DNA of 60,653 nucleotides, the filler included, from Sphacelaria rigidula (Eukaryota): the NCBI GenBank assembly GCA_964200075.2. It is 8 parts of 8 records of this genome, joined end to end, with 100 filler letters (N's around TTAATTAATTAA, not from the genome) between each part and the next. Parts side by side here need not be neighbours in the genome. Positions count along the whole stretch, not along the records: positions 53,161 to 60,653 come from CAXNAA020014670.1; 7 more parts are not named here. One strand, given 5' to 3'. Of this stretch, positions 3,728-60,653 are shown one piece after another. The notes beneath the pieces were generated by a model. It did not search any database. It saw only the letters and a list, made by a program, of their open reading frames with translations, and was not told the origin of the DNA. Position 1 is the first letter of the stretch. Every line of letters starts with the position of its first letter. The position numbers and the translations under genes are program-made.

Positions 3728-5065
3728 CGCCCCGCCGCGCGGGGGGGAGGGCGGGGGGGGCGGGGGGGGGGGGGNNNNNNNNNATTTGCTGTTTTTTTCC
3801 CCCCGGAGGGGTTTGCCGCCCACTTGCTTCCAAGGGAGGTAAAAAATTTACGTTTTTTTTTCCCCCCCCCCCCCCCCCCCTGTCCCCCTCCCTCACGGTT
3901 GTAATGGAAGAGGGAGAGCAAGGTTGCCACAAATTTGTTTCGTGAGGCACATCGACATTTTCGCGATCCGGGTGACCTCGTTGTTTTCTCGGGTGCCTGA
4001 CCCCCAATCGGATCGACCAGTACCTACCGTACTTGAACGGCACGTGGCGAGAGCGTTGTTCTACTCTGTACACAAGAATGAACTGTTGATGGGGGGCAGC
4101 AGACCTCTACCCTGCTCCTGCACATGTCCAAACTTAGTGTGCAACCTTCAACCAGCAATGGGCCGCTGTTGACTGCACTAAATCTCCGCTGTGCGGTGGT
4201 CCCATCGTGCTCCTCATGCTGTGTGCACTGTTGTTGTTGTTGTTGTTGTCTTCACATTATCCGTGTCGATATTTCAGGGCAGTGACCTGTATACCTAGTT
4301 TTCGTCAAATTACTGCACTACAGTACTGTGTACACTGTCCGCTACAGCTGCAATGCTCGTGACTTGGCCCGCTCCGACACGTGATGACACTGGGAAAGTG
4401 TATCTCAAACATCAAGCTGGAGGCCTCGTCATGACTGACATTCCCCGTGTACTCTGAGACAAAGCGCAGTGTTGGATACCTCATCAAATACCGAGCGTAC
4501 TGTGTTCTACCGCACTGCCTGTCCTGTGTGCGGTGTTGTGAAATGGTTCCTCGTTTTCCTATATCGGCGTGTCAAATTCCTGGAAGTACTCCTGTGTTAG
4601 ATAGCAGTCCGTGGGCAAACGCCTTCGCCGTTCTGCGCTAGTACTTTCACCGGTCGCCCTCTCATGTCCTGAAGTCGAATGGTGTGACCAAGAATGCCCT
4701 CTTCTGGAAGGTGCGACGCGGGCCTTGACGTCGAATAAATGCCCACTGATGTCAAGCCAGTGTTGCCGTGCTAAGAGAAAACGCAAGAGTGGTGACTTCT
4801 GCTGGAACGAACTTCCTACATGCTGGTGGCCCGTCGCTTGGCCCGTCGAAAACTAGGCGTATCACCCCCTCCTTGTAGTTGGGAGGGTGCAAGATGCAGG
4901 GCCAACGATCGGTGGACTGTTTGGACTCGTTGTCAAAAATACAGTCCGTGTCGCCTTGAGCGCCGCGCACGCCAACATTGCCGTACCACGGTGTTTGCCA
5001 GCCTTGCGCGCCCTCATGATCGTCTTGCAAGTTGACGTACACGCGTGGTCAAAGCAATGGGTTAA

Positions 5066-5163: not shown

Positions 5164-5929
5164 TTAAGGCACTACTTCGAAGTACAATACACTGTTACGC
5201 CCCGGGACAACTGCTCTCTAGCAGTGTACAGTTGGGTACTCTACGCGGCGAAATATACTCGGCTGTTGAATGACGAGGCATTCAAGCATCTTCGCGCAAG
5301 ATCGTTCATGTATATGTACATGATATGCAGGACGTGAGTTACAATGAGACATATGGGAGGATGGATGCATACGAATCAAATTGGTGTGCTTGGCGATCAA
5401 AGGCAAGGGGAAATCCCCGTCTCTACTTCTAGCTACCTGGTACAACAAGCTGCCCTTGTCGCAGGCGAGTTTTTTTCTTTTGTTTCCTCGTTCCTCGTGT
5501 CCCAGGCAATTGTTCAGTATCTATATTTAGAGGAGCAGTGCGCACTGCACCTCAGCGCCATATCGAACACACCTCAAACCGAGAAACGGGTTGAGCGCAC
5601 GAGAAGACAAACTGCATTGAAGATTGAAGATGCCTTTTTTTTTAATGCCGTGTTTATGCACGACTGGTGGCACAAGAAGGCGCTGCGATGAAAATCGCCC
5701 AAGAAAATACTAGCAGAGAAGAAGAAAATCTCGAACCGGAATCATATTCATGATTGTTTCCCTCGCTACCAGCCGTGCGAAACTGGTCATCCCTAGAATC
5801 CTCTAGTTGTATAGCGCAAAAAAAACAAACATGGCGGAAATCCTTGCTGGTCTCTTCGGAGAGAGCAACTTTGTCTTTTCGCATCGCCCTACTGCTGCTG
5901 CCGGATTTCTTTCTGTTATATGTTCAGAG

Positions 5930-6073
5930 ATGAAGTTGGAGGCGGCGGCGGCCGTCCTCGGCGTAGCGGTCGATGCAGATCCCGAGACGCTGAAAGCTGC
6001 TTACCGCCGACTGGCGCTGAGATGGCACCCGGACAAGTGCAAAGATCCCGACGCAAAGGAGCGATTCCAAGAG
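5930..6073 (+). CDS. J-domain (DnaJ/Hsp40-family) protein, exon; remainder not identified on this contig
   Basis: [48 protein letters not shown] with the HPD motif; GAG|gtattt donor; ttcag acceptor at 5927. Confidence 0.9.
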
Positions 6074-6306
6074 GTATTTATACTGCTGTATTGCACAGTG
6101 GCGTTGGGTGTACTCTTGTGGCTCATTTATATTCCGGTGATGTTTTTCATTTTTAGAGTATAACCCAACTGATTTTGCGGTGGGATGTTGTGATCAACGT
6201 GCGGTTAGATTTCGTGTCATGCAATGAATTGCGCTCACACAGGTTTCTGTGCCGCCGTTTGTGTTCGTGAAGAGGATTAGTATACTGTGAAAAGTTTCGT
6301 AGCGAT

Positions 6307-11740: not shown

Positions 11741-12001
11741 GTCTCACTATCCACCTGGCCAATTCAAATCCTGCATATCCGAGGGACATGTCCACCCGCT
11801 GAGTCGGCACCATCTTCACTTGGAAAATGACCATCAGACTCTCTCAGGTGTCTCATCCACTGCAGGCACTCAAATGGCCAACAGGCCCGCGTTCAATCCT
11901 CCAGCTCCCCGCACAGAAACAAGCACAAATCGCAAGGCGCAAGGACTCTCGGTACCCCCCTCCCCCCCCTCTCTCTTCTTCTGCGGACGGATAACTTTCA
12001 C

Positions 12002-13810
12002 CTGCTCGCGACGCCCCCTCGTCCTCTGGCGCCTCCTGCACCCACACCCATCCTCCCATAGCTCTCCTCCAGGCTCTTAATCTCGCCGAGTCCTGTGCCC
12101 CTACCGCGGGTGGGCGAACCGGACAGTCCTCTACTCGAACCTCCCCCTCCCCCACCAATGACACCAGTTCCTGTTCCCGTCACACGAGCGATGCTGGTGC
12201 CCAGCAGTTTAGACGGCGACCGCATGCGCTGAGCGCGTAGCGAGTGGGGGTTGTCTGCTACTGCATTTGACGACGACGACGACGACGCCGCCGTAGCTCC
12301 GCCGGTTGCTATAGCGCTGCCGACGCCACCGCTAGAGCTGGTACTGCTGCGTGCGCGACGGTGTTTGATGGCGGGGTTGGGGTCATTTTGTCGGGGCATA
12401 TTGTTGTTGATGTTGTTGGCGATGTTGAATCGGCCGTTCGTTGGATTTGTACTTCCGGTGTTTGCGTTCGAGTTTTTGTTCGACGTTGTTGGGGTCGTTG
12501 TTGGTGTGGGGGGCGGTGTTTTGGTGGGTGAATGTTTCGGCGATGCGGTTGATGGTGGTTTGGATGGGTTCAGTGCCGGCGTCGGCGGCGGTGTCGGCGG
12601 AATGGTTTTGGTCGTGTAAGACGTCGATTTTTGTGCGGTTGTAGTGTTGGCCATGGCGGTAAAAGGGCCAGGAGGAGCGTGCGGTGTGTTGTAGTTGTTG
12701 TCGCCGAGTCGTCGTCGGGACGATTGAATCAACGGCCGTTGTCGCGGTGAGGTTGGTGTCGGGTTGTGTTGGGAGACGTGGTTGATGTTGTAGTTGTCGG
12801 TGGCGGCGGCAGCAGCAGCAGCAACGGTGGCCGCACCAGGAGCAGAAGAAGCCACCACCGGAGATGTTGACATGGCCGTACCCGACGCCGCGACGGTTGT
12901 TGTCCGAATGGGCGACGTCATCATGGCCGTGTTGGGTCCCGTCATGATCGGAGACGTGGGCATGCACGCCGCAGCGGTCGACACACCAGAAGAAGACGTC
13001 CCCGAAACCGACACACCGACCATCACCGGCGTTACGATAGCGATCGGCGGCAATGAAGCCGCCGAATGACGAGCGTTATTTGTTGTCAAAGCCGGTGCCG
13101 AGGAAGGTGCCACCAAGGTTTCACCATCACCATTACCATTACCGTCACCATCATCATCACCACCGGTAGCGGTAGCAGTGGAAGTAGCGCCGCGCGAAGA
13201 CACCCGAGAAGATCCAGAACCCACCGAAGCAGCGGAAAAAAAAGACGAAGGGGCAGAAGCCGAGTGCGTATGACCCACCGAAGCCACCGGGGCCGCGGCG
13301 CCATTTTTCGACGTCGCAGACAGCACAGCACCCCCACCCGGTTTCGCACAATAGAATGGATTCGAAAAATCCGGGTTCCACGATGGGAGCGTTACAGGCG
13401 GCGGGGAATCACCAGTAGCAGCATCACCAGCAGCAGCGGCAGCAGCAGTATTACCAACACCACCAGCCGAACCGGAAGTAGGCGGAGAGAGACGCACGGA
13501 AGAAGGAGCGACGGTGGCGGCGGAGGGGGCGGGGGCGGGGGCGAGGGGGGAAGAAGACGGCACGGGATCGGACACGGGAGGGGGGGGGGAACGTCGGCGT
13601 CGTGCTGTCGTAGGCAGACCAGTCGCGGCGGCGGCCGCGGTGTCACTAACGCCCGTGGCGTTGCGACCCGACGAGGAAATGGATCCCCGCCGGGGCGACC
13701 CCACGGGCGACGTAGAGCGCGATCGCCGGCGACGTGGATGCATGTTCAGCCGAGGGTACGACCTCGGAGGAGGGGCAGCGGGGGGCGTGCGGTGATGTGT
13801 CGGCGACTGC
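12002..13810 (-). CDS. Large exon of a low-complexity Ser/Thr/Pro/Ala-rich (probably disordered) protein; 5' boundary uncertain
   Basis: Part of a 675-aa open frame (11998-14025) with trinucleotide-run coding texture; CAG|gtgaaa donor at 12002. No recognisable domain. Confidence 0.7.
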
Positions 13811-14532
13811 CGCGGGGGCGGAGGAGGAGGCGGCGGTGCGACGGAACGGGCGGCAAGAGGTACACTATCGTTTCCGCGGCCGGTGCGGGCGCGCGCGCCG
13901 AGAACAGAGACGAGAGCGGGGACGGGGGGCGGAGAGATCCGTGTGCAAGCCGAGCCGCGCGTCCACGGGGACATGGGTGCAAAGCGGGCCAAGATGGGTG
14001 TGAGGCGATTTTGATGGGAGATCAATCAACATTTGTTCTTCGTGAGTGGATAATTTGGGAAGAGATACACGGTGTTGAGTGGGTGAGTGGGGGATCTGTT
14101 TATTTTTCACGTACGAGGTCTGCCAGACAGTAGCGAATGGATAGTCCGTCGGACATGCATGCCATCTGAACAAGCAAATACCCTCGCAAAAACAATCGTC
14201 ACATATCAGCAGGAGCGCGAGAAGTGGTGGACGTACCAGTTGCATGAAATCCTCACCGCAGCAGGAGCAGGAACCGGGGGGATGGGGGAGGAGGGCGCGG
14301 GGGGGTATTGATTTGTTGTTTGCCTCAGTCATTCGACTATTTACCACGAATCCCTCTCGAGATGGAGCACTCGTAGGGATGGGCGGGGAGGGGAAGGGGG
14401 AAGGAACGCGAGAGATGGACCAACATTTTACACTCTACGGTACCCTCAAAGTCACCTACTGAAAAGAACCAAAGAAACGAGAACACGCACACACAGCGGT
14501 AACACTCTCACCGAACCCAACCAAGCACCCAC

Positions 14533-23624: not shown

Positions 23625-24460
23625 CTATATGATGTTCATGAAAATATTACGGTGAAACTCAAAAGACTCTGTCGACAACAGTTTAGTGAGGAAATCTGCA
23701 TGTTGATATTCCGATCTCACGTGAATAATCGAAACCTCATTCCTCCCGACCAACTCCCTGATAAAATGATGCAGTATGTCGATGTGCTTGGAGTTGGAGT
23801 TTGTGATTGGGTTATTTGCCAACGGGAGAGCTCGCTGATTATCCTCGAACACCGGGATGCATGGCATTCCCATCTGCGGTAACATGAAACGCCAAACCTG
23901 TCTCAAAAATAATACCTCCTTCAGAATATCTGTCATGGCAAGGTACTCTGCTTCCGTTGTAAAACAGTGTCACACACTTCTGAGTCCTCGAAAACCAAGA
24001 CACACATCCACCTCCACACATGACTAGCCCTCCTGATACCGGCCGCCTATCAGCTGCCTTACTTGCGTAATCGGCGTCTGCAAACACATGGAAGCTCAAC
24101 CCCTGTACACTTCCTCTGCGAGAAGAAACCCCCAGCGAACTTGTTCGCCTAACATACCCCAAAATACCAAGCGCAGCACGCCAATGCAGGTGTTGTGGTG
24201 AGGCACAGTACCTCGCTACTGCACGTACTGCGTTAGATATGTCTGGCCTCGTTTGAGTTGCCAGCCACATCAATGACCCCATCAATTCCCGAAACGGAAA
24301 TTCCGTTGCCTGCTCTTCTACACCGAACTCTTCAAGCTTCGCACCAACAGCGATAGGGATACTCTTTCCCCGCTCTATTCCGTATTCCTTTGCCAACTCT
24401 TCTGCGTATGTTTATTGTGAAATTTTGATAGTCCCCCCTTCAATATCTCTCTCATGGTAC
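23625..24460 (-). mobile_element. Ty1/copia RT C-terminus + RNase H (disrupted)
   Basis: FRELMGSLMWLATQTRPDISNAV, FADADYASKAADRR.VSGG, VSWFSRTQKCVTL(frameshift)TEAEYLA, FEDNQ, SKHIDI.HHFIRE, QHADFLTK. In-frame stop near 24414 and frameshift near 23960. Confidence 0.95.
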
Positions 24461-24499
24461 AGTGTTCCGGATGTATCGGTTATGGTCCAGTCGAGTAGA

Positions 24500-27400
24500 T
24501 TCCATGTGTCATACTCTTGCGTTGCCCAGCCCGACAAGTCATGGGCCATTCTGAGTCTGGTTGATTCCGAGAGTGCCCCCACTTGGCGACAGTCTTTTGG
24601 GAACTCATCTCAACGCACACGTAGCAGCTATCAGCCAGTTGCCAATAATACAAGAAGTATCAACACTATCTCGGACTGCTATCTCAGAGGAGCCTTTGAC
24701 CTTCATGCAACACATGTTGTGCTGCAGCCTGCACGGCTCATGACATGCCACCTGACCACTGGTGCGGTGGCTGACTCGCACTCGATAATATCGAACTCAA
24801 TGGTTTCGATACTAAAGACTGTGTTTGGGCCTGCTAGCCCCGGTGCCCACTGAACGGGCATCTTCCTACCCAGGTCGTAAGTATCGTACCATGACACACC
24901 TACAATCGTCCACAAAACGATTCAGGTATACAAGTCATAATGTGCTTCCGCATTATCAACAAGCAACTACACCGGTACTTGCTCCTTAACATCATCCAAC
25001 CCGGCGTTCACCACAACATCAAGCACCTCAGGTAATGCCTTCCGTGTAATTCTCCTGCGCTCCTCTTGAGAAGCAGCAGCTCTCAGGCTACAATCTCGTC
25101 CATACCGTAGAGTAGCATTTCCACTCGGAGCGTCGCTCCTCGCATCATAGATACAGCTACAGCTCTCATAGCTTTCCCGAAAATCGGTGTTCAATGCCCA
25201 CTGCACGGCGGGTACCAAACCCACCCAGGCATTAGCATCGCGTCTTCCTCCCTGCATTATGACCTTCAAGGTACGAACAATTTCACGCATCATTCGCTCA
25301 CATTCACGATTTGACAACCGCGAGTTGGCCACCAGGAATCTGCGATCCATCAGCGCCTTCTTGAGCACTCTCACCACACGATTCTCATATTGCGATACCG
25401 TATCGCTGACCCATCCCTCCTGCGGCCCCAGCGCTTTGCACCATGTCCACAGATGCTTCACCGTCGTCGCCGCCGTACAAGACTCCGCGGGCTTCAACCG
25501 CACGAAGTCGCCCAGGTCATCCATCCTTACCAATACGTGCTTGAACGAATCTCCTTCGTCCAAGCCATTATCTCCCAGCGGACCACCCTCGCCAACACTG
25601 AGAAAATTGAAATGAAGCACCTTTCCTAGGCGAGCACCACGCACCACCTCCTTGTGGGGACGGGGAACTTCCTCCCCCGCCTTGTATGCACTCATCCAGC
25701 GAAAGTAGGACTTCTCGGGCGTTGCAATCGCTGCTCTCGCCCACATTACTTGCAAACTGCAGTACACGAGTACACGAGCCCGAGCGCCACCAATGTTGCG
25801 ATGCAACGTGCCAACCACGTCAGAGCAGTGCTACGGTAGGGGTGCACTTTTTTCGCGAAATTATGTCTAGTTCAGGGGCTCCTAACAATTCTGTAGATGC
25901 ACGAAAATATGGATCAGGGCATCCCCGTTTGCAAATTATTCGGGATGTCTCCAGCACATTGGAAAAGTAATCCTGGCGTACTTTCACATATTTTCATAGG
26001 TCGTATTTTGCATGAGATAAAGGGCTCCTAACAATTTCGACCTCAGAAAATATTTCTGCACCCCTACCGTAGCATCACTCGTCATCCTGACCGGAAACTA
26101 CGCCCTAAGCCGAGCCTTTGCCTTCACAGCAACACGTTTGAATAACACCTTCAAGGGCTCGACGCGAGCAGGCGGATAACCATGCAGCACTCGCCTAAAA
26201 ATGCTCGCTCTGTTCCATACAGGCTCACGAATCTGGCTCACGTCGCTTTCCAACAACCGCTCGACTGAGGAATTAACGGGCTCCGCCTGATCTCCTCTTT
26301 GCTGTAAAGCGTCAACCGCGATACTGACACGCCGACAGTCCGTCAAATCAGGCGTGTTTATACCTCGCACCGAAGTGTCTCTTGCACGTGCACAATCACC
26401 TAAGCTACTGTACACGTCAATGCCCAGCGCCTCCAGCGTAGGGCTCCCCATGATGATCACATCATCTGTACCCGGCATGACCGCATATGAACATGGGTCC
26501 AGCACAACCGGTCCCCAGCTGGTGTGTAAAGCGGTTCGGACAGGGCAAGTTTTCTGCTTCACGCGCTTAACACTGCCGTTAGCCAGTTTCACCAGCTGTT
26601 CACCAAACATGGGTGTGACCACTCGAACATCTGGAACCATAGCTTGTACTTTCGTCGCTACATCCACTGACATGGTCGTGATTCCAGATCCCGAGTCTAA
26701 AATGGCCTTGACCGGACAAGCACTCTATGCCCCTGTACTCGGTACAGACAAGTCGGCGAGACACCATTGTTCCTCTTTTTTTATGCGTATACCCTCAGAT
26801 TGAAAACCTGATACTTCACCCGGTTTAAGCGATCTCCACGACGACATCGCCTCAGATGTCCAGCGCGGGACTGTTTCCCCTGTTTCCCCCGATACGGTCT
26901 GCTCTACGCCACCAGTAGAAATGACCGGTTCTGGTGGTAGCATCGCTCCACTGCTGGGAGCACCCCCTCCATCGGTTGAAAATACAGCCCTTGTAGCGGC
27001 AGTACGCTTGCCTCCTCCTCGACGCACCTGTCCAGGGCCCTGCGACAGCTGCTGCTGTTGTTGCTGCGTGTCGCCGGCCTTCGACTGCCCACCCGTAGTA
27101 TGTTATGGAGCAGCAGCTCGGTTTTGCTGCTTACAATCCTTCACGAAGTGGCCCCTGTCTCCACATGAGAAACAACCTGCATAGCTTGGGCCCGGTTTCC
27201 GAGATTTCCCAACACTGGCAGTCTCACTGCGAGTGGTCGCCGTTTTTCCACCATTCGCTTCACGCTTGGACCCGGAGGTCCCGCTGCCGCCCTTCTGTTT
27301 CAGCTGCGGCTGGTGACGGCGCTGTTTATCAGCTGCTTCTACCGTCTTTCATGCCTCTGCTGCTTTTCTAGCCGTATCATACACGAGCCCAGGGCCCTCT

Positions 27401-53160: not shown

Positions 53161-53466
53161 TTATCTGTGGAGATCGCAACAGATTTTCTTGCACACGTAT
53201 TATTGTTCAGCGGCCATTCTCGAATCCTTGGAGCCAAGCGAATCTGAAAAGTGGGCTAGGCTCCATTCTGTGGGGTGATGCAAAATGTCCAAGACGTGTG
53301 TTGGCGATTTTCCCTGTTTGGGGGTCAAAAGGGGGATCAAACGCCAAAAAGTGAACAATCCGTGGGCCAAAAATCTGTTTGCCATAACATCCGGTCTGAG
53401 TGAGCATTGCAGAAACAGAAAATCGCGATCGATACTCGATATTTTGATGCACGATGTTCACCGCTG
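53161..53466 (-). mobile_element. hAT-type element end (family of 1390-2019) containing modules related to 6900-7135
   Basis: Minus CAGCGGTGAACATCGTGCATCAAAATATCGAGTATCGATCGCGATTTTC aligns with 1390-1438. Confidence 0.75.
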
Positions 53467-54182
53467 ATATCAATCTGTGTACACCTCATTGCGCTGCGTT
53501 GAACTTCGCTGTCAGAATTTGGGGTAGTTAGCCTGTGACCACAGAAGGCGTCCGCATCAGATGCCCAGTACAGAGTTCTGCACAGATATCGGAACGGTTT
53601 CTAGTATCAAGACTAAAGACTACGACGACGACAACAACGACAACGAATGTCGGGCGGCGGGGGAAATCAGGGGCGAGATGGATACGTGAAGAAGTTCACA
53701 CGAAAATATGCCGCCAAGAACACTAACGCCTCTTGCAGGTTGACCTTTGAGCATCGTCCCGTATCGGCCGCGCGTTCACGTCTTGGATGTTTACTTTGCT
53801 GTGTTCGACGTGATTTTGCAATCCTTTTGATATGCGGTACCCAAGTGATACGATTTGTATCTGTTCAATATCCGAAGATGTCAGAAGTAGAAAGCGGCGG
53901 GTGGAAAAACTTCTGCTGGCGCAATCGTTTTTGTGCTCATTAGAACCTAGACGATACAAAGTAGCTCCGGTAAGAGAGAGAAGAGCGTTCTGTTGCGTCA
54001 CTCCTTTCCGATGTCCAGTATCCCGCCTGCGGTGATTTCTACCATGTTTTGCGATGTAGTGCCGAATCCCAGTAGTATATTCTGTGCTCCAGTAGGACAT
54101 ACAACTAGTGCCACAAGTACTGCAGTGTCTGTACTGCGTGCAGTCCAGTTCACGCAGTTGTAGGTGTAACGCCTCCCCTCAC

Positions 54183-54337
54183 CTAGATAAGGCCGTCGCA
54201 TGGATCACAACGTCTGCAGCCTGGTAGTGATCGCACAGAGTCTTGAATTGAGCGGTGCAGATGCATGCGTCTCCCTTGCTCAGCAACGCGCCGAGCCCTA
54301 GCGCCACAGTTGCCAAGACACTCTTGCCGATGATCAT
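54183..54337 (-). CDS. Secreted TIMP-like (NTR/OB-fold) protein, first coding exon, paralog 1
   Basis: MIIGKSVLATVALGLGALLSKGDA|CICTAQFKTLCDHYQAADVVIHATALS: signal peptide, then C-x-C at the predicted mature N-terminus and ADVVIHA; AG|gtgagg donor. Confidence 0.75.
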
Positions 54338-54454
54338 TGCTGAAATGCCCTTGCCTCACTCCTTCTGGAAAAATGCAGCTTCTGCGTGTGTTCGGTCGTG
54401 CCTCAATTTGAGCGGGCGGGGTTGGTGCGCGGGGCCGCCCGCTGCTTACCCACG

Positions 54455-54464
54455 CTATATATAC
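54455..54464 (-). promoter_or_regulatory. Candidate TATA box of TIMP-like paralog 1
   Basis: GTATATATAG on the minus strand ~120 bp upstream of the ATG, inside the upstream block conserved between the paralogs. Confidence 0.35.
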
Positions 54465-56379
54465 CTCGCGGTCCACATGAAAGAATGTGGTACATCACGA
54501 TTCTAGGGAAATAATTATGGTGGGTCGGGCGGTGGTTGGCATCATAAAGAACACTCCGACTGCCAATGCGTCGATTCGTGCCCGCTCTGAGCATACCTAC
54601 CACCATAAACTTGTTTTGATGTGCTGGTGCTCCTCCAGATTCCTCAGCAATACTACTCGTAAAGGTATCTCAAACTTGAGATTCGCGGTACAGTATGTTG
54701 CACATTGATATGTAGTCGAATATATTCGAAACTTCGAGCTTGAGATATAGTGTATCCCTAGTAACTGCATTTTCCCCGCACCCGTACAAATAAGCGAAAG
54801 GGCAGCACTGGGAGCGACCACGAGTTTAGGCGAACTATTGTCCATCACAGCGGCTCCGATCCTAAGAGATCCCGTTTCACGTTGTTCCGACGAAACAGAT
54901 CATCTCTGGCCGATGGCACCATCTGCGCGGGGAAGAGGCGCAAGTTATCGTCTTCGCTGTACTTTGATCAGGCTCGATGGTTAACCATTCTAGCAATTGC
55001 AGATGGATACCGGATTGAAACCCCTGGCCAGCGAGGTTGGACCATCTGGAGCATGCGTACGAATTATCTATGCTCACCGCCACGCAACTCATCAAAATTC
55101 GACTGCAAATGATGCCAACTAAAAATATAAACACATGTCCCAACGGTTCGCCTGCCTGTGCATGGCGTGTTGTTCAACGTACTATTATACTAGCATAGAT
55201 TCATGACCGCGACTGAAGTGCGCGAGGTGCGGTCAATCAAAAATGATGAAACAACGTAGTAACAGGGCAAACAAACGGCCTTTCATTGGTGCTTTCAGGG
55301 TTTGGGACGGATCAATGCACGCTGCTCATCATCTTGTTGAAGCCACCGCATACGAGATACAACCACACTTCACAGTATATTTCAGCAATCTTGTATACTT
55401 GTACGGTATTGCTACTCCTCGTATAACAATCGGCAATATCGCGCGGCCTGCACCGCACGGGTACCGCGCCATACCGGGTACACGACAAAGATACAGACCG
55501 TAATCAATGCGCTGTAGAGGTGTACGTAGTACTTGTGGCAGACAACAGCAGTGTGGGGTGTCGGAAATGCAAGGAGTTGCCTCGTCCGTGCATATCACGA
55601 AAATGAAGAGGCAAGATTGAGCTTCACAGGTCGGATGCCGTACAGGAATCACCCTCCCGCAGTCGGGCGTAAAATCATCCATGGAAGAACGTTACTCCAG
55701 GGCCATGATGACCACGAGCGACGCTAGCGGGGTCTCAATGGATCCTTGAACAAAACTCAGCGATGTATGCTCACAGGCATCCAATACGAGCAGTGAGCAG
55801 CGCGACATTTTTTCCTTGATTGAGCGCTCAAGAATCATGTTTGGCAAGCGCACTCCATCCATAACTCATATTTCATACGATTTTCATCATAATATGACGA
55901 ACCTCTCCAGGGCTGCAGGGATAAAAGTCCATGTTGCCCACCCCCGACGGCTACAAAGCTGATGTGATACTGTACAATTGTAGCCACAGAACAGCCACTC
56001 AATCGACATGGTCTATATCACACACGTGGGGCATCAATACTCTCTCCCTGCTACTGACTGCCGGGTTTTCCGGCCTGTTTCTTAAGCTCCGCGCTGACTG
56101 TGCTGCCCTGCCCCCTTCGGAACTTCCCCCCCGTCTGCGGTTTGTCAGTAGGCCCAAGTAAAACCCACGAACCCACCGGTGCGCTTGCTTCCGTGCTGTA
56201 TGCAGCTAACGGTAGCTTCATACTACACACGCTCTCATCTTCTTTAAGATGCACACGATAGTCGTACAATTCTTTCGTGAGCTCCGGACTCTTGCGCGTG
56301 ATCAGGACACCAAACCACCCCATGCTCAATCTCGACAATACTCCACGTTTCGCCAAGGAACGGTCTACTGTTATCCATG

Positions 56380-56749
56380 GTGTGTGTGCGTGTGTGTGTG
56401 TGTGTGTTGCCGTCCCTTTATTCTGGACGCCAGTCTACGCATCTTTCGGTATATGTGGGCGCACCAGCCGGGGTCACGCAGGAGGAAGGTCAACACAGGA
56501 TATTTTTGTTTGTTTGTTTGTTTACAGTCATCTATCTTCTACCTTCCTCCTGCGGTGCTTGCCTTTTTTATTTTTAATCGCGAGAGGGGTAGAAGTCGAT
56601 TTTTGTGTACTCACGACATAAATAGTCGCTCTCCGGACTGTCGGGCATTGTGTGAGGAAAAAATCCCACATCACTCCGAGATTTGAATTAACCCAGGTCC
56701 CAACCGTCAGAAGGTTTCGAGGTTATCAACTGAGCCACTGAGGCGACCG
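56380..56749 (-). mobile_element. tRNA-derived SINE family B with long (CA)n tail
   Basis: Colinear with 47060-47350 and 49901-50256. Confidence 0.88.
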
Positions 56750-56767
56750 TGTCCCAGCGGAGATTAA

Positions 56768-56866
56768 CCCTTCGACCGCGAGGTTAGTCTTCTGTTGAAT
56801 CGGCATCAATTTCGAGTGAAAAAAAAGTATGCATGATCCAGAAAGACTAATCTCGCGCTCTAAGGG
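56768..56866. mobile_element. piggyBac-type MITE (opposite orientation to 5066-5163)
   Basis: TTAA-CCCTT...AAGGG-TTAA, same core. Confidence 0.9.
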
Positions 56867-58185
56867 TTAATGTTGTTTGCCAGTTTGAGTGAGGAGTCAG
56901 CTAATTGCTTGGAGGCACAATGTAGCCATGGTGGTTGTGGGAGCCGTTTCTTATTATTCTGAGGTGCAGTGCATTTTTGCAGCTTCTTACCTGCCGAATC
57001 CCTTGTACTTCCCGATCTCTTTTTCTAATGTTCCCCCTGAGTCCAACAGAAGTGCTCACCTGTAAATTATTAATTTATTTCAAAACGAGCCCGAGATTCT
57101 CAAGAACGAAATTCTCAACAACCGCCGCGCTCTGCATCTGTAAACTACTGTGAAATACAGCGGGAATCTCGAGTTTGAGATACCTCTACTACTATTGCTG
57201 TTGTAGGACGGTACTTCGCGCGTGCGGGCGGTCCGTCATCATGATGAGTTACGCAAAGCTGCAGCCATCTATGTGCATTGCTCCATCGCAGACCCCGAAA
57301 CCACAAACAAGAATCGCAATGTTTGTCCTGTCACTGCCCCTCTATCAGGTTGACCGCCTCGCGCACCGCAGTTCATGTACAGAATTGATTCTAGCCATGC
57401 GAAACGACGCGCGTCATGTAATGCAGGCGAACCCTCCGGGCTCACGGTAGTTCGCTGAATTAGCATCATTTTCAGTCGAAACTTGAGTGTTGAAATCGGG
57501 TACCTATATGCGGTCGCTGAAAGGTTCAGCATCGAACTTCATTGAAGTGCACTGAAGACCATACATGCCTCAGTTTTGTTTTGTCTGGGGTACGTCTATC
57601 ATGTTACCACGGCTGGATCCCCTAGGCGTCAGTTCAAGTGCGACAATCAATCGAATCAGTGAAACAAAGTTCCTCTCTCTTACCTGCGTAGACAGTACAG
57701 TGTAACCGGTCAGAAATTATATGTTTAGTCGCAAAAATGTGTAATTTCTCCGGCTTGCTACCGACAATCAAGCCGGTTTCGGAGATGTCTGAAGAGAGTC
57801 CGACAAATCCGGAAAGTTATGAGATCTCCCGAAAAGCAGTGTTGGTGATGGGCCTTTACGATGGGCCTCTTCGGCTGTCGGGGTGCGCGGAAGGAACATC
57901 AAAACAAGGTCACGGAATGTCTGTCCAAAACGGGCACGATTGACACATGCTGTCCTTACCGTTTAGCCATGTGATCATGATGCCAACCATCGCCTGACTC
58001 GCCATAATACCCTAGACGCGTGATTTACCACATTCAGTTATTATACGATCGACCGCCAAAAATGACGTGGGGAAGCCACGGGCGGCACAGTACACCCGCC
58101 CCTCCCATTTCAGAGGCACCACCAAAGACACGCAACGTGAACAGAATTTCAGTACTCGTAGGTGTTAGGCAAACGTATTTTAGCG

Positions 58186-58340
58186 ATGACCATCGCCAAG
58201 AGTGTCCTGGCGACTCTTGCGCTTGGAATGGGTGCGTTGCTGAGCAAGGGAGACGCTTGCATCTGCACCAAAATTTTCAAGACTCTGTGCGATCACTACG
58301 AGGCTGCGGACGTGGTGATTCATGCAACGGCCTTGTCTAG
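58186..58340 (+). CDS. Secreted TIMP-like protein, first coding exon, paralog 2
   Basis: MTIAKSVLATLALGMGALLSKGDA|CICTKIFKTLCDHYEAADVVIHATALS; same 155-nt length and same phase-2 donor as paralog 1. Confidence 0.75.
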
Positions 58341-59861
58341 GTGAGGGAAAGTATTGCGCCCACCACTTCAACAGAAGATGCAGTCGTGGTGGCGTATGCA
58401 GTAATAATGTTGATGTAGTACCGGCAGTACTGCTTTCGTTAATAGTTCACACTCAGGTGTAACTCGTAATACACAACGTACAACAGGAGTGATACGCGAC
58501 TCATGGTAATTAGTTCATTCCTTTCAAGGTGCTCAAGAGTAGTATGCGGTGAAAATGGACTTTCTCCCGCCTTTTTTCGTGACTCGCTTGAGAGCCTGGG
58601 GCTCTCTAGGTCGAACAGAAACGACGGCGCGTGATGTCAGTTCGTGAGCATTATATTTGTTTCAGGTAGTATTTGCCGGGATCTAAAATGTGTATCCTGG
58701 AACGGTGGCCCTTCGCATCTGGGGTGCTTCGGCGTATTCCCCATTTCATCTGTCTAAATGATTTCTTGATTTCCAGCTAGTTTCACGAACCGAAATGCTT
58801 CGCAATGAGCGGCTTCACTTGAACGTATCACAGCCATGATAATATGAAGAAAATCTTGGAATCGTGAAGTGACGATAAGGAAGCGATTGCATGGCATTAC
58901 AACACCCAGCAGTAGCAAAATCCATCTTCTCTCAAGTGTATAGCCTCGTCGTCACATACCCCCCTTCGCCTTTTTCTCAACAGTGAAAACAACGTAACCA
59001 AACACACCTCTAGCTAGACAAAAATAATTAATTACCCAATGATATCTGAAAGCAGAAATGATGAGGCGATGAAAAGGAATATTGTTTGAGTGCGAGAACA
59101 ACGCGAGATGCTTTGTGTTCCGATCATCTCTCCATGAATAGTGTCGTCTCTTCATTTATCATCTGTGTACGTGCTTGACTACAACCATTCATTTATTCGG
59201 TTGGAATGCAGGGCCTTGTTGTGCGGCTCTCTACGGGGGGAAACCTGCCATTACTTATCTCGTACAGCTGACTGAAAAATAGCGCGAAAACTGCACGGAT
59301 GTGGTGGTGTCGTAGATGGACGACAGCATTGACTAGTAAGTCTCCTGCAGGTGGCAGACTCGTGTTTCCGTCACCGATAGCGGACAAGAGGTTTCTACGA
59401 CCTCCTAAGGGGCTTGTAACTTTTGTGTGAGGAACCATGCCTCGATCCGCCCACCCCGCCCCTCTGCTTCCCGCCGATTGTGTTGGACCATGAACAGATT
59501 TCTCCAGACCAAGTTCGAATTAGTTCCAGTCTTCAAGCCAACATCGTTTTTCTTCACTGCTGTACTGTCAGGAAGCTCCAAGCGATCGATTCGTTTCGCA
59601 ATAAGCAGACTTCTCAGGGGCCCGGCAGCGCCCGGGCATCATTTTATCTGGGTGGTGATAAGGCAGCACCACTGCAATGTGGTTGGGTTTTGATATGCCG
59701 TGGGCGCACCCCCTCCCCCGCCTGCTTCGCCTATTTGGACGTTCTCGAAGTATGATGTAATGTGTGAGCGGACCGTGTGCTGTGTGGATCGCATCGGACT
59801 TCCAACAACCCGGGACCGACGTTTTCAAGACCGCTCGGACCAGTCCCTGCAGAGACCGCGC

Positions 59862-59896
59862 CCCTGATCCCAACCCTAACCCTAACCCTAACCCTA
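59862..59896. repeat. Short interstitial telomere-like (CCCTAA)n tract
   Basis: Three full CCCTAA units, one partial unit, and two degenerate units upstream. Confidence 0.8.
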
Positions 59897-60104
59897 CGAT
59901 TGTTTTTAACCTCTGATGCGGTCCATAAAGCACGCGGGGCAGCAGCCGCTCCACAAGATACATCAAAGCCTTCGCTAGTAGAGGGAAGTTCTGAAGATGA
60001 GCCCGGGGCGGGCGGCGGGCTTTATTGGAAATGTTCGTGGCTCGTGACGTTTGGTACTGTTCTTGAAACAGACCGACTACTGTCCCGAAGACAGTAGTTT
60101 AGCA

Positions 60105-60348
60105 GAGATCATCTCAGCGGTCTCCATGCCAAGGAGTTCTGCACACGGCAGCTGATCGCATCCGCTCTATACACGGCAGCTGACCGCATCCGCCAACGCC
60201 TCGACAATAACCTAGGGGACAGAAGGCTGGGTGTATCCCCCCCCCCCCTTCCCCCGCCGCTTCCGTACCCTCCCCCCTCCCCTCTCAAAAGCTCGAATTT
60301 TCGATCTTGGGGCCTACGTATCCCAAAATAGTTTTCGACAGACCCTTG
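60105..60348 (-). mobile_element. CAAGGGTCTGTCG-family element, left end
   Basis: The minus strand starts CAAGGGTCTGTCGAAAA, then G-tracts and a module matching 95-190. Confidence 0.7.
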
Positions 60349-60653
60349 GTAGCACCTCAAAATGGCCAAAACCTTTTGTTGATGGTGCGTGATGATTGAC
60401 AGCCGTGAAAAGTACTTGGGAAGTAATAAGATCGCATTGAAATTCGTCCTGAGGCTTTGAATGGAATTGCTTGACAACATTGCTTGACCACAGTCCTACT
60501 CTAGCACCGACCCTTCCCGATCATTATCCGTCATCCCTCCGCTGAGCGATGCTACGGTAGGGAGGGGCGGGGGGGGGGGGGGGGGGGGGGGTTTTTGCTT
60601 GTTGTGCAGGTGCGGGTTGTGTGGGTGGGGTTGTGAGTGATAGTGTATAGTGG

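Follow-up and report, generated by a model that had tools for sequence, protein, structure and literature searches.

Organization of the P1/P2 Locus

The window, meaning the whole stretch of 60,653 nucleotides (nt) analysed here (Sphacelaria rigidula, assembly GCA_964200075.2), contains between positions 54183 and 58340 two divergently oriented first exons of related genes, designated P1 (minus strand) and P2 (plus strand). P1 and P2 form a transcribed paralogue pair that ordinary gene calling missed; the list of open reading frames (ORFs) of at least 60 amino acids (aa) includes P2 (58162-58344) and omits P1, as the original prediction had pointed out. The start codon of each exon is the first ATG after an in-frame stop, and the two ATGs lie 3,848 nt apart. 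Both translated exon peptides consist of a hydrophobic 24-residue leader followed by C-I-C-T, a third cysteine, and A-D-V-V-I-H-A-T-A-L-S. The predicted layout, with two divergent 155-nt exons about 3.8 kb apart and 24-aa leaders ending in GDA, was confirmed by reading and translating the DNA. The coding features are as follows:

58186-58340, plus strand: P2 exon 1, 155 nt made up of 51 codons and 2 bases, followed by GTGAGG
54337-54183, minus strand: P1 exon 1, 155 nt made up of 51 codons and 2 bases, followed by GTGAGG
58186..58257, plus strand: P2 signal peptide predicted from the translation, 24 codons, ending G-D-A
54266..54337, minus strand: P1 signal peptide predicted from the translation, 24 codons, ending G-D-A
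58258..58340, plus strand: start of the mature P2 protein, with Cys1-x-Cys3, Cys11, and the strand A-D-V-V-I-H-A, up to the phase-2 exon end
54183..54265, minus strand: start of the mature P1 protein, with the same set of motifs as P2
58270..58275, plus strand: six-base patch of P2, AAA ATT, mature residues 5-6 (K-I)
54248..54253, minus strand: six-base patch of P1, GCT CAA, mature residues 5-6 (A-Q)

Divergence of the Two Copies

The exon peptides of P1 and P2 are identical at 44 of 51 residues, and 11 codons carry a synonymous difference only; these figures, given in the original prediction, were reproduced on recounting. By the Nei-Gojobori method, the exons show 13.5 synonymous differences over 37.0 sites and 10.5 non-synonymous differences over 116.0 sites, corresponding to a synonymous divergence (dS) of 0.50, a non-synonymous divergence (dN) of 0.096, and a ratio of 0.19 (Fisher p 9e-5 to 5e-4 for the synonymous excess, from rounded counts). 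Since a dS of 0.5 is accompanied by a dN/dS of 0.19, both copies have been kept under protein-level constraint, and purifying selection, as previously proposed, has acted on exon 1 at the level of the protein long after the duplication.

The duplicated unit exceeds the exon. It is an inverted repeat of ~370 bp that spans the promoter, the 5′ untranslated region (5′UTR), and the exon (57977-58347 against 54545-54176, 74.7% identity over 383 columns by blastn), including a core that aligns without gaps over 208 nt at 81% identity. Its parts differ in conservation, with 87 of 124 columns identical (70%) in the upstream block, 54 of 92 (59%) in the 5′UTR, and 131 of 155 (85%) in the exon. At the start of the intron, identity is 19/27 (70%) over the first 27 bases and then drops to 8/33, as between random sequences. 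The upstream parts are as follows:

57977..58096, plus strand: P2 upstream (promoter) block common with P1, 87/124 columns identical, blastn similarity beginning at 57977
54388..54545, minus strand: P1 upstream block common with P2, including a TATATATA stretch near 54457-54465

When the whole window was searched with P2 by tblastn, P1 was found at E 1.3e-25 and the next match had an E of 0.72, with no third copy of the unit in the window. A candidate near 49.3 kb, consisting of two matches that overlap on the same bases in different frames within a short direct repeat, was dismissed as chance.

Codons 29-30 of the exons, corresponding to mature residues 5-6, differ at all six bases between P1 and P2, as had been noted earlier (58270-58275 against 54248-54253). 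From this patch the original prediction derived a diversifying family with a hypervariable spot at its inhibitory tip. However, six independent adjacent changes would be improbable (P about 5e-4 to 2e-3), and a single complex event therefore explains the patch as well as selection does; it is most simply one complex mutation or micro-conversion. With one clustered change between two DNA sequences and only 3 further homologues, neither diversifying selection nor a hypervariable inhibitory tip is supported.

Transcription and Splicing of Exon 1

Sequencing contigs were compared with positions 53161-60653, using three runs guessed to be RNA (X1, X2, and X3) and one DNA run (X5). In all three RNA-like runs, P2 is represented by contigs with a depth of 76-421, which extend from 58097, 58102, or 58108 to 58342 without a mismatch and then carry 25-33 letters found nowhere on 53161-60653. 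Contigs of P1, present in two of the three runs at a depth of 77-116, cover 54182 to 54360 or 54387 and then carry 34 further letters. Most single-copy bins have a depth of 0-9 in the RNA-like runs, and X2 and X3 have zero depth over 53661-54160. The DNA run covers all 30 bins at an even depth of ~25 and its contigs are unbroken through both donors, one of them (53570-56005) being continuous across the P1 donor and the start of its intron. Because the RNA-like contigs leave the genome at these points while the DNA run reads through them, the donors are placed as predicted. The contig pattern fits transcription and splicing at the phase-2 GT donor of both genes, in agreement with the common donor, GTGAGG in each, of the original prediction. 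The transcript features are as follows:

58097..58185, plus strand: P2 5′UTR, with contig starts at 58097 (X3), 58102 (X2), and 58108 (X1) and no upstream ATG; the in-frame stop ahead of the P2 ATG is at 58159-58161
54338..54387, minus strand: P1 5′UTR, minimum extent, reached to 54387 by an X2 contig and to 54360 by an X3 contig
58341..60653, plus strand: P2 intron 1, with its GT donor at 58341-58342, extending beyond the window end
53661..54182, minus strand: first part of P1 intron 1, with its GT donor at 54182-54181, where the X2 and X3 contigs leave the genome

The contig keeps an open reading frame, with no stop, over the 25 letters that follow the P2 donor. A search of the window allowing up to 3 mismatches did not find these 25 letters (8 mismatches in the closest match), which places exon 2 of P2 outside the window and makes its intron 1 longer than 2.3 kb; the letters are also absent from the metagenome contigs searched. 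Exon 2 of P1 does not lie within 53661-54181, so the distance to it exceeds 0.5 kb. The contig letters beyond the two donors differ between P1 and P2 from the second base on. No shared coding sequence was detected by tblastx between the downstream regions of P1 and P2, no TIMP or NTR match was found by Pfam on 129 downstream ORF pieces, and when 2,590 ORF pieces of the window were searched with a profile of actinobacterial TIMP-like domains (described below), nothing above noise was obtained, the best E being 1.6. Near 51.3-51.5 kb, two weakly scoring pieces on the minus strand (E 21 and 27) have a non-coding appearance and were rejected as exon 2. Exon 2 of P1 and of P2 was not recovered by these searches, just as the original prediction had not confidently found downstream exons, and the proteins are read to mature residue 27 only. 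The recovery of transcripts that it had suggested reached, in the RNA-like contigs, from the 5′UTR to the donor and ended there, with no exon 2 located.

Relatives of P1 and P2

Searches of 1.84 billion representative proteins returned three relatives (E 2e-15, 2.7e-5, and 3.1e-5), one of 53 aa at 78% identity and two of 84 and 47 aa at ~50%, all of them unnamed singletons from run assemblies. All three end at an arginine followed by a stop codon, that is, at a read-through of the same donor, and the intron position is therefore common to the five members. No full-length or longer relative was found in protein searches with P2 or the alignment, in metagenome loci, or in the ESM Atlas, and a protein search aimed at close relatives returned nothing but P1 of the window itself. 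A scan of prokaryote genomes produced one locus (L001), which was discarded, its match being limited to 15 residues of an off-frame ORF and attributed to chance.

All five members retain D-V-V-x-H-A and the three cysteines without change; the third early cysteine is at mature position 11 in P1 and P2. The mature N-terminus reads C-I-C in four members and C-R-C in one. Cleavage sites were read by eye with the -3/-1 rule, which predicts cleavage after A24 in P1 and P2 and exposes Cys1 in three of the five members (G-D-A/C in P1, P2, and one relative, the slash marking the cleavage). Within the mature stretch, conservation among the members is lowest at residues 5-6, which occur in two forms: basic-Ile, shared by P2 with one relative, and small-Gln, shared by P1 with another. 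On balance, P1 and P2 appear to represent a small unannotated family of secreted proteins, doubled in the window by an old inverted duplication (dS about 0.5).

Similarity to TIMP and NTR Domains

The N-domain of TIMPs is a five-stranded barrel of the oligonucleotide/oligosaccharide-binding (OB) fold, of about 125 residues, and TIMPs inhibit metzincin metalloproteases tightly at a 1:1 ratio. When the five-member profile of the mature stretch was compared with 177,635 PDB sequences, TIMP-2 (1br9_A) ranked first, at E=1, with its residues 15-25 aligned to family residues 17-27 and 8 of 11 positions matching. A Kazal-type elastase inhibitor, obtained when the full exon profile was used against PDB (E 0.17), was taken as a chance match, its alignment spanning the signal-peptide junction.

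Comparators were taken from a search with PF00965 over 401 genomes of one bacterial phylum, centred on the genome of the chance locus L001, in which 5 matched and 4 exceeded the Pfam cut-off of 23.1 bits. A profile of 4 actinobacterial mature domains gave 16 PDB matches, of which 15 are TIMP-1/2/3 chains; the best E-value was 3.7e-7, with an alignment from Cys1 over ~100 residues. With the actinobacterial domain profile as the query, the family was present in 50/401 genomes, a tally that includes 6 unpublished genomes; the alignment of 24 domains was made without these six and without one locus with a stop.

Comparison of the five-member profile with the 4 bacterial domains by hhalign gave a P of 5.4e-4, and none of 400 column shuffles reached the real score. 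Against the 24 domains, the P was 1e-4 with a probability of 58%, family columns 4-29 being placed on bacterial domain columns 1-26, and 0/300 shuffles reached the real score of 22.65 (means 8.5-8.7; maxima 15.9 and 16.7). The z of the shuffle tests is about 6.7. Against the same 24 domains, the P was 9e-5 with P1 and P2 alone and 3e-4 with only the three relatives from outside the window. In HMMER with the bacterial profile, Cys1 falls on model position 1 in both exons. These comparisons point to a modest but real profile-profile match at the very start of a TIMP-type domain, and the TIMP/NTR-type reading of the P1/P2 N-terminus would stand a little over one half. The TIMP likeness of the original prediction was thus borne out in part: the profile match (P 1e-4, 0/300 shuffles) speaks for it, while there is no Pfam match and TIMP-2 is reached only at E=1. 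In Pfam, one form of the check that it had suggested, neither TIMP nor NTR matched at an E of 10 or below, which is a weak test on so short a fragment.

Proposed Function and Alternative Explanations

The best overall explanation, to which we give a probability of roughly 0.55 from the sequence comparisons, is that P1 and P2 are divergently transcribed paralogues with a TIMP/NTR-type start, encoding putative metalloprotease inhibitors. Exon 1 would comprise the promoter-proximal 5′UTR, the 24-residue signal peptide, and the first 27 mature residues, and its phase-2 GT donor would join it to an exon at a distance of over 0.5 kb in P1 and over 2.3 kb in P2. The mature protein would start a TIMP/NTR-type domain, with an exposed Cys1-x-Cys3, a third cysteine, and a first beta-strand A-D-V-V-I-H-A, the three partner cysteines presumably lying in exons still to be located. 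Once secreted, it may bind or inhibit extracellular zinc metalloproteases in the manner of a wedge, with Cys1 and the next residues entering the active-site cleft; the placing of residues 5-6 in the contact segment of the putative inhibitor is the least certain step. Cys1 of TIMPs is described as coordinating the catalytic zinc with a free alpha-amino group (PMC9409782, PMC4860685), and the disulfides as Cys1-Cys70, Cys3-Cys100, and Cys13-Cys123 in TIMP-1 numbering (PMC9409782).

Several observations weigh against this explanation. Only 27 of the ~125 residues of the domain are in hand, and the third cysteine is at position 11 as compared with 13 in TIMPs, with the strand starting two residues later. 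With the 51-residue exon peptides and the 5 mature parts as queries, Pfam matched neither TIMP nor NTR at E values up to 10, a weak test on a fragment. The direct TIMP-2 match has an E of 1, and the HMMER scores of the two exons against the bacterial profile correspond to E 6.6 and 11 among 2,590 ORF pieces. In addition, hhalign sets family Cys3 on bacterial Cys1, a placement that results from the family having a spacing of cysteines and strand different from that of TIMPs. Two of the three relatives (G-D-A/Y-C and A-R-A/V-C) would retain one extra residue before Cys1 after the likely cleavage, and an added N-terminal alanine abolishes inhibition by TIMPs, according to PMC2871463. The same paper reports no metzincin inhibition by an NTR domain cut back to its first cysteine, and a TIMP/NTR fold would for this reason not prove inhibitor activity. 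Neither partner cysteines nor a metalloprotease gene was found in the window, where the sole Pfam match among the 144 ORF pieces scanned (174 listed) is DnaJ. As for transcription, the RNA library type is a guess for four small runs of one study, and the evidence consists of contigs, not reads.

The alternative that survives best, although clearly less probable, is that P1 and P2 encode a secreted disulfide-bonded protein of another fold, for example a small one for adhesion, the wall, or signalling, whose TIMP-like start reflects convergence or coincidence. No curated model matches P1 or P2, the direct TIMP match reaches only E=1, the similarity is carried by an 11-residue strand and the cysteines alone, the cysteine spacing is unlike that of TIMPs, 2/5 members appear N-terminally capped, and the pair was selected from a very large scan for its TIMP look. 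However, the profile match, out of about 75 possible offsets, lies exactly where the TIMP-like domain begins, with a P of 1e-4 that no shuffle equals, and it is carried by residues invariant in the family (three Cys, D-V-V, and H-A), both of which argue for the TIMP/NTR-type start.

It is also conceivable, but improbable, that the promoter and exon-1 cassette (~370 bp) alone was duplicated and that one copy, as an intermediate of exon shuffling or a gene in decay, is joined by splicing to sequence that is unrelated or non-coding, and is not a second complete gene. Such an event would be consistent with the similarity ending 27 nt into the intron, with tblastx showing nothing shared downstream, and with the post-donor contig letters differing from the second base. 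Nevertheless, indels and inserted repeats can make a neutral intron unalignable at such divergence, the dS of 0.5 with a dN/dS of 0.19 indicates long protein-level constraint on both copies, and both copies are found at high depth in contigs that leave the genome exactly at the donor. A non-coding repeated element with a fortuitous open frame, which the short open frames (52-60 codons) and the lack of a recovered downstream exon might suggest, is very unlikely in view of the concentration of substitutions at synonymous sites (Fisher p 9e-5 to 5e-4), the single-copy depth of the unit in the DNA run (about 25-26, as against 1e5 or more for nearby repeats), and the retention of the cysteines in 5/5 homologues.

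The secure result, a transcribed paralogue pair with a TIMP-like N-terminus, is narrower than the putative inhibitor function. A far wider and doubtful proposal is that expressed, duplicated TIMP-type wedge inhibitors exist in a non-animal, possibly stramenopile-algal lineage, with their own cysteine spacing, two recurrent versions of residues 5-6, and some members capped by one extra residue, and that they form a tunable extracellular system of protease inhibitors whose origin or acquisition took place outside animals.

Comparison with Known Systems

TIMPs are usually presented as an animal family. The related NTR modules (PF01759; netrins, C3/C4/C5, sFRP, and PCPE) have six conserved cysteines and are usually C-terminal in a larger protein. 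Unlike in most of these modules, the P1/P2 motif lies at the mature N-terminus, as in TIMPs; Pfam gave no match to it. With animal TIMPs (PF00965, MEROPS I35; 1br9, 2tmp, and 3cki), P1 and P2 share a predicted signal peptide, a Cys-x-Cys directly after it, a third cysteine about ten residues on, and a matching strand, exon 1 ending just past the strand that matches TIMP-2. However, the family remains below the Pfam threshold, its residue 2 is Ile (Arg in one member), and some of its members carry one more residue at the N-terminus.

The best statistical match to the P1/P2 family is provided by the actinobacterial TIMP-like proteins. Their exported N-domains resemble it in a leader ending in Ala, followed by Cys-x-Cys, about ten residues, and a strand A-D/A-x-V-F-V-G. 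Unlike P1 and P2, they have four cysteines with no counterpart of Cys11, Ser or Thr as residue 2, and no introns, and many have long C-terminal regions, with open frames of 181-892 aa. The actinobacterial loci L002, L004-L011, L014-L019, L021-L030, L032, L035, and L036 encode exported proteins that start A/C-S-C and have a TIMP-like domain of ~100 residues.

The NTR domain of PCPE-1 is an NTR-type module that can be made to begin at its first cysteine, as PMC2871463 describes, and it differs from TIMPs in that the metzincins tested there were not inhibited. One review (PMC9409782) describes TIMP expression throughout the Metazoa. In a survey of 388 eukaryote genomes, the domain was reported outside Metazoa as a single-domain TIMP only, in Sphaeroforma arctica, Ectocarpus siliculosus, and various bacteria (PMC3516229). 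These non-animal proteins would be similar to P1 and P2 as secreted single NTR/TIMP-type domains, one of them in a brown alga, a likeness by description only. The novelty that the original prediction implied for a TIMP outside animals does not hold, since such proteins, including that of Ectocarpus siliculosus, are already in print (PMC3516229). No study of algal TIMP-like proteins was found in the literature beyond one sentence of that paper. From their sequences, P1 and P2 are probable new members of these scattered non-animal TIMP-like proteins. If this is true, they would provide an expressed, duplicated TIMP-type example outside animals with defined promoters, and the control of the extracellular matrix by protease inhibitors would become testable in such an organism.

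Surrounding Sequence

The region between the two genes contains at 56411-56910 a very high-copy repeat, with word depths of 266,646 and 387,956 in the DNA run compared with ~25 for single-copy sequence, which is abundant in the RNA-like runs too. By eye, it includes near 56690-56775 a minus-strand stretch that resembles a tRNA, with an inverted repeat close by; no call was made in the window by ARAGORN or Rfam. The repeat may be a tRNA-derived short interspersed nuclear element (SINE) or a miniature inverted-repeat transposable element (MITE). Microsatellites of (GT)n and (TTTG)n occur between the genes at 56376-56416 and 56497-56531, where reads seem to be cut. Two further high-copy repeats were detected, one at 53161-53660 (DNA-run depths of 141,480 and 106,788) and one at 60161-60410 (32,151), the latter adjoining poly-C/poly-G inverted repeats at 60237-60272 and 60548-60591.

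The window is gene-poor. An ORF piece with a DnaJ domain at 5807-6160 on the plus strand (E 3.2e-13) is the sole Pfam match at E<=0.001 among the 144 ORF pieces of at least 95 aa scanned out of 174. At 12001-14025, on the minus strand, lies an open frame of 675 codons, rich in Pro, Ser, Ala, and Thr, in an island of 63% G+C and with no Pfam match. The minus-strand ORFs at 23842-26724 are retroelement-like, resembling Ty1/copia by eye, with no Pfam match at E up to 0.001; among the nearest Atlas clusters, one carries RVT_2 in 20% of its members and another has few recorded taxa, all of them Oomycota, a weak hint of a stramenopile host. Fifteen runs of N occur from 3775 to 53160, one of 9 bases (3775-3783) and the rest as paired 44-base blocks 12 bases apart, repeated every 7,594 bases. 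Both the repeat load and the length of the introns are in keeping with a large eukaryotic genome.

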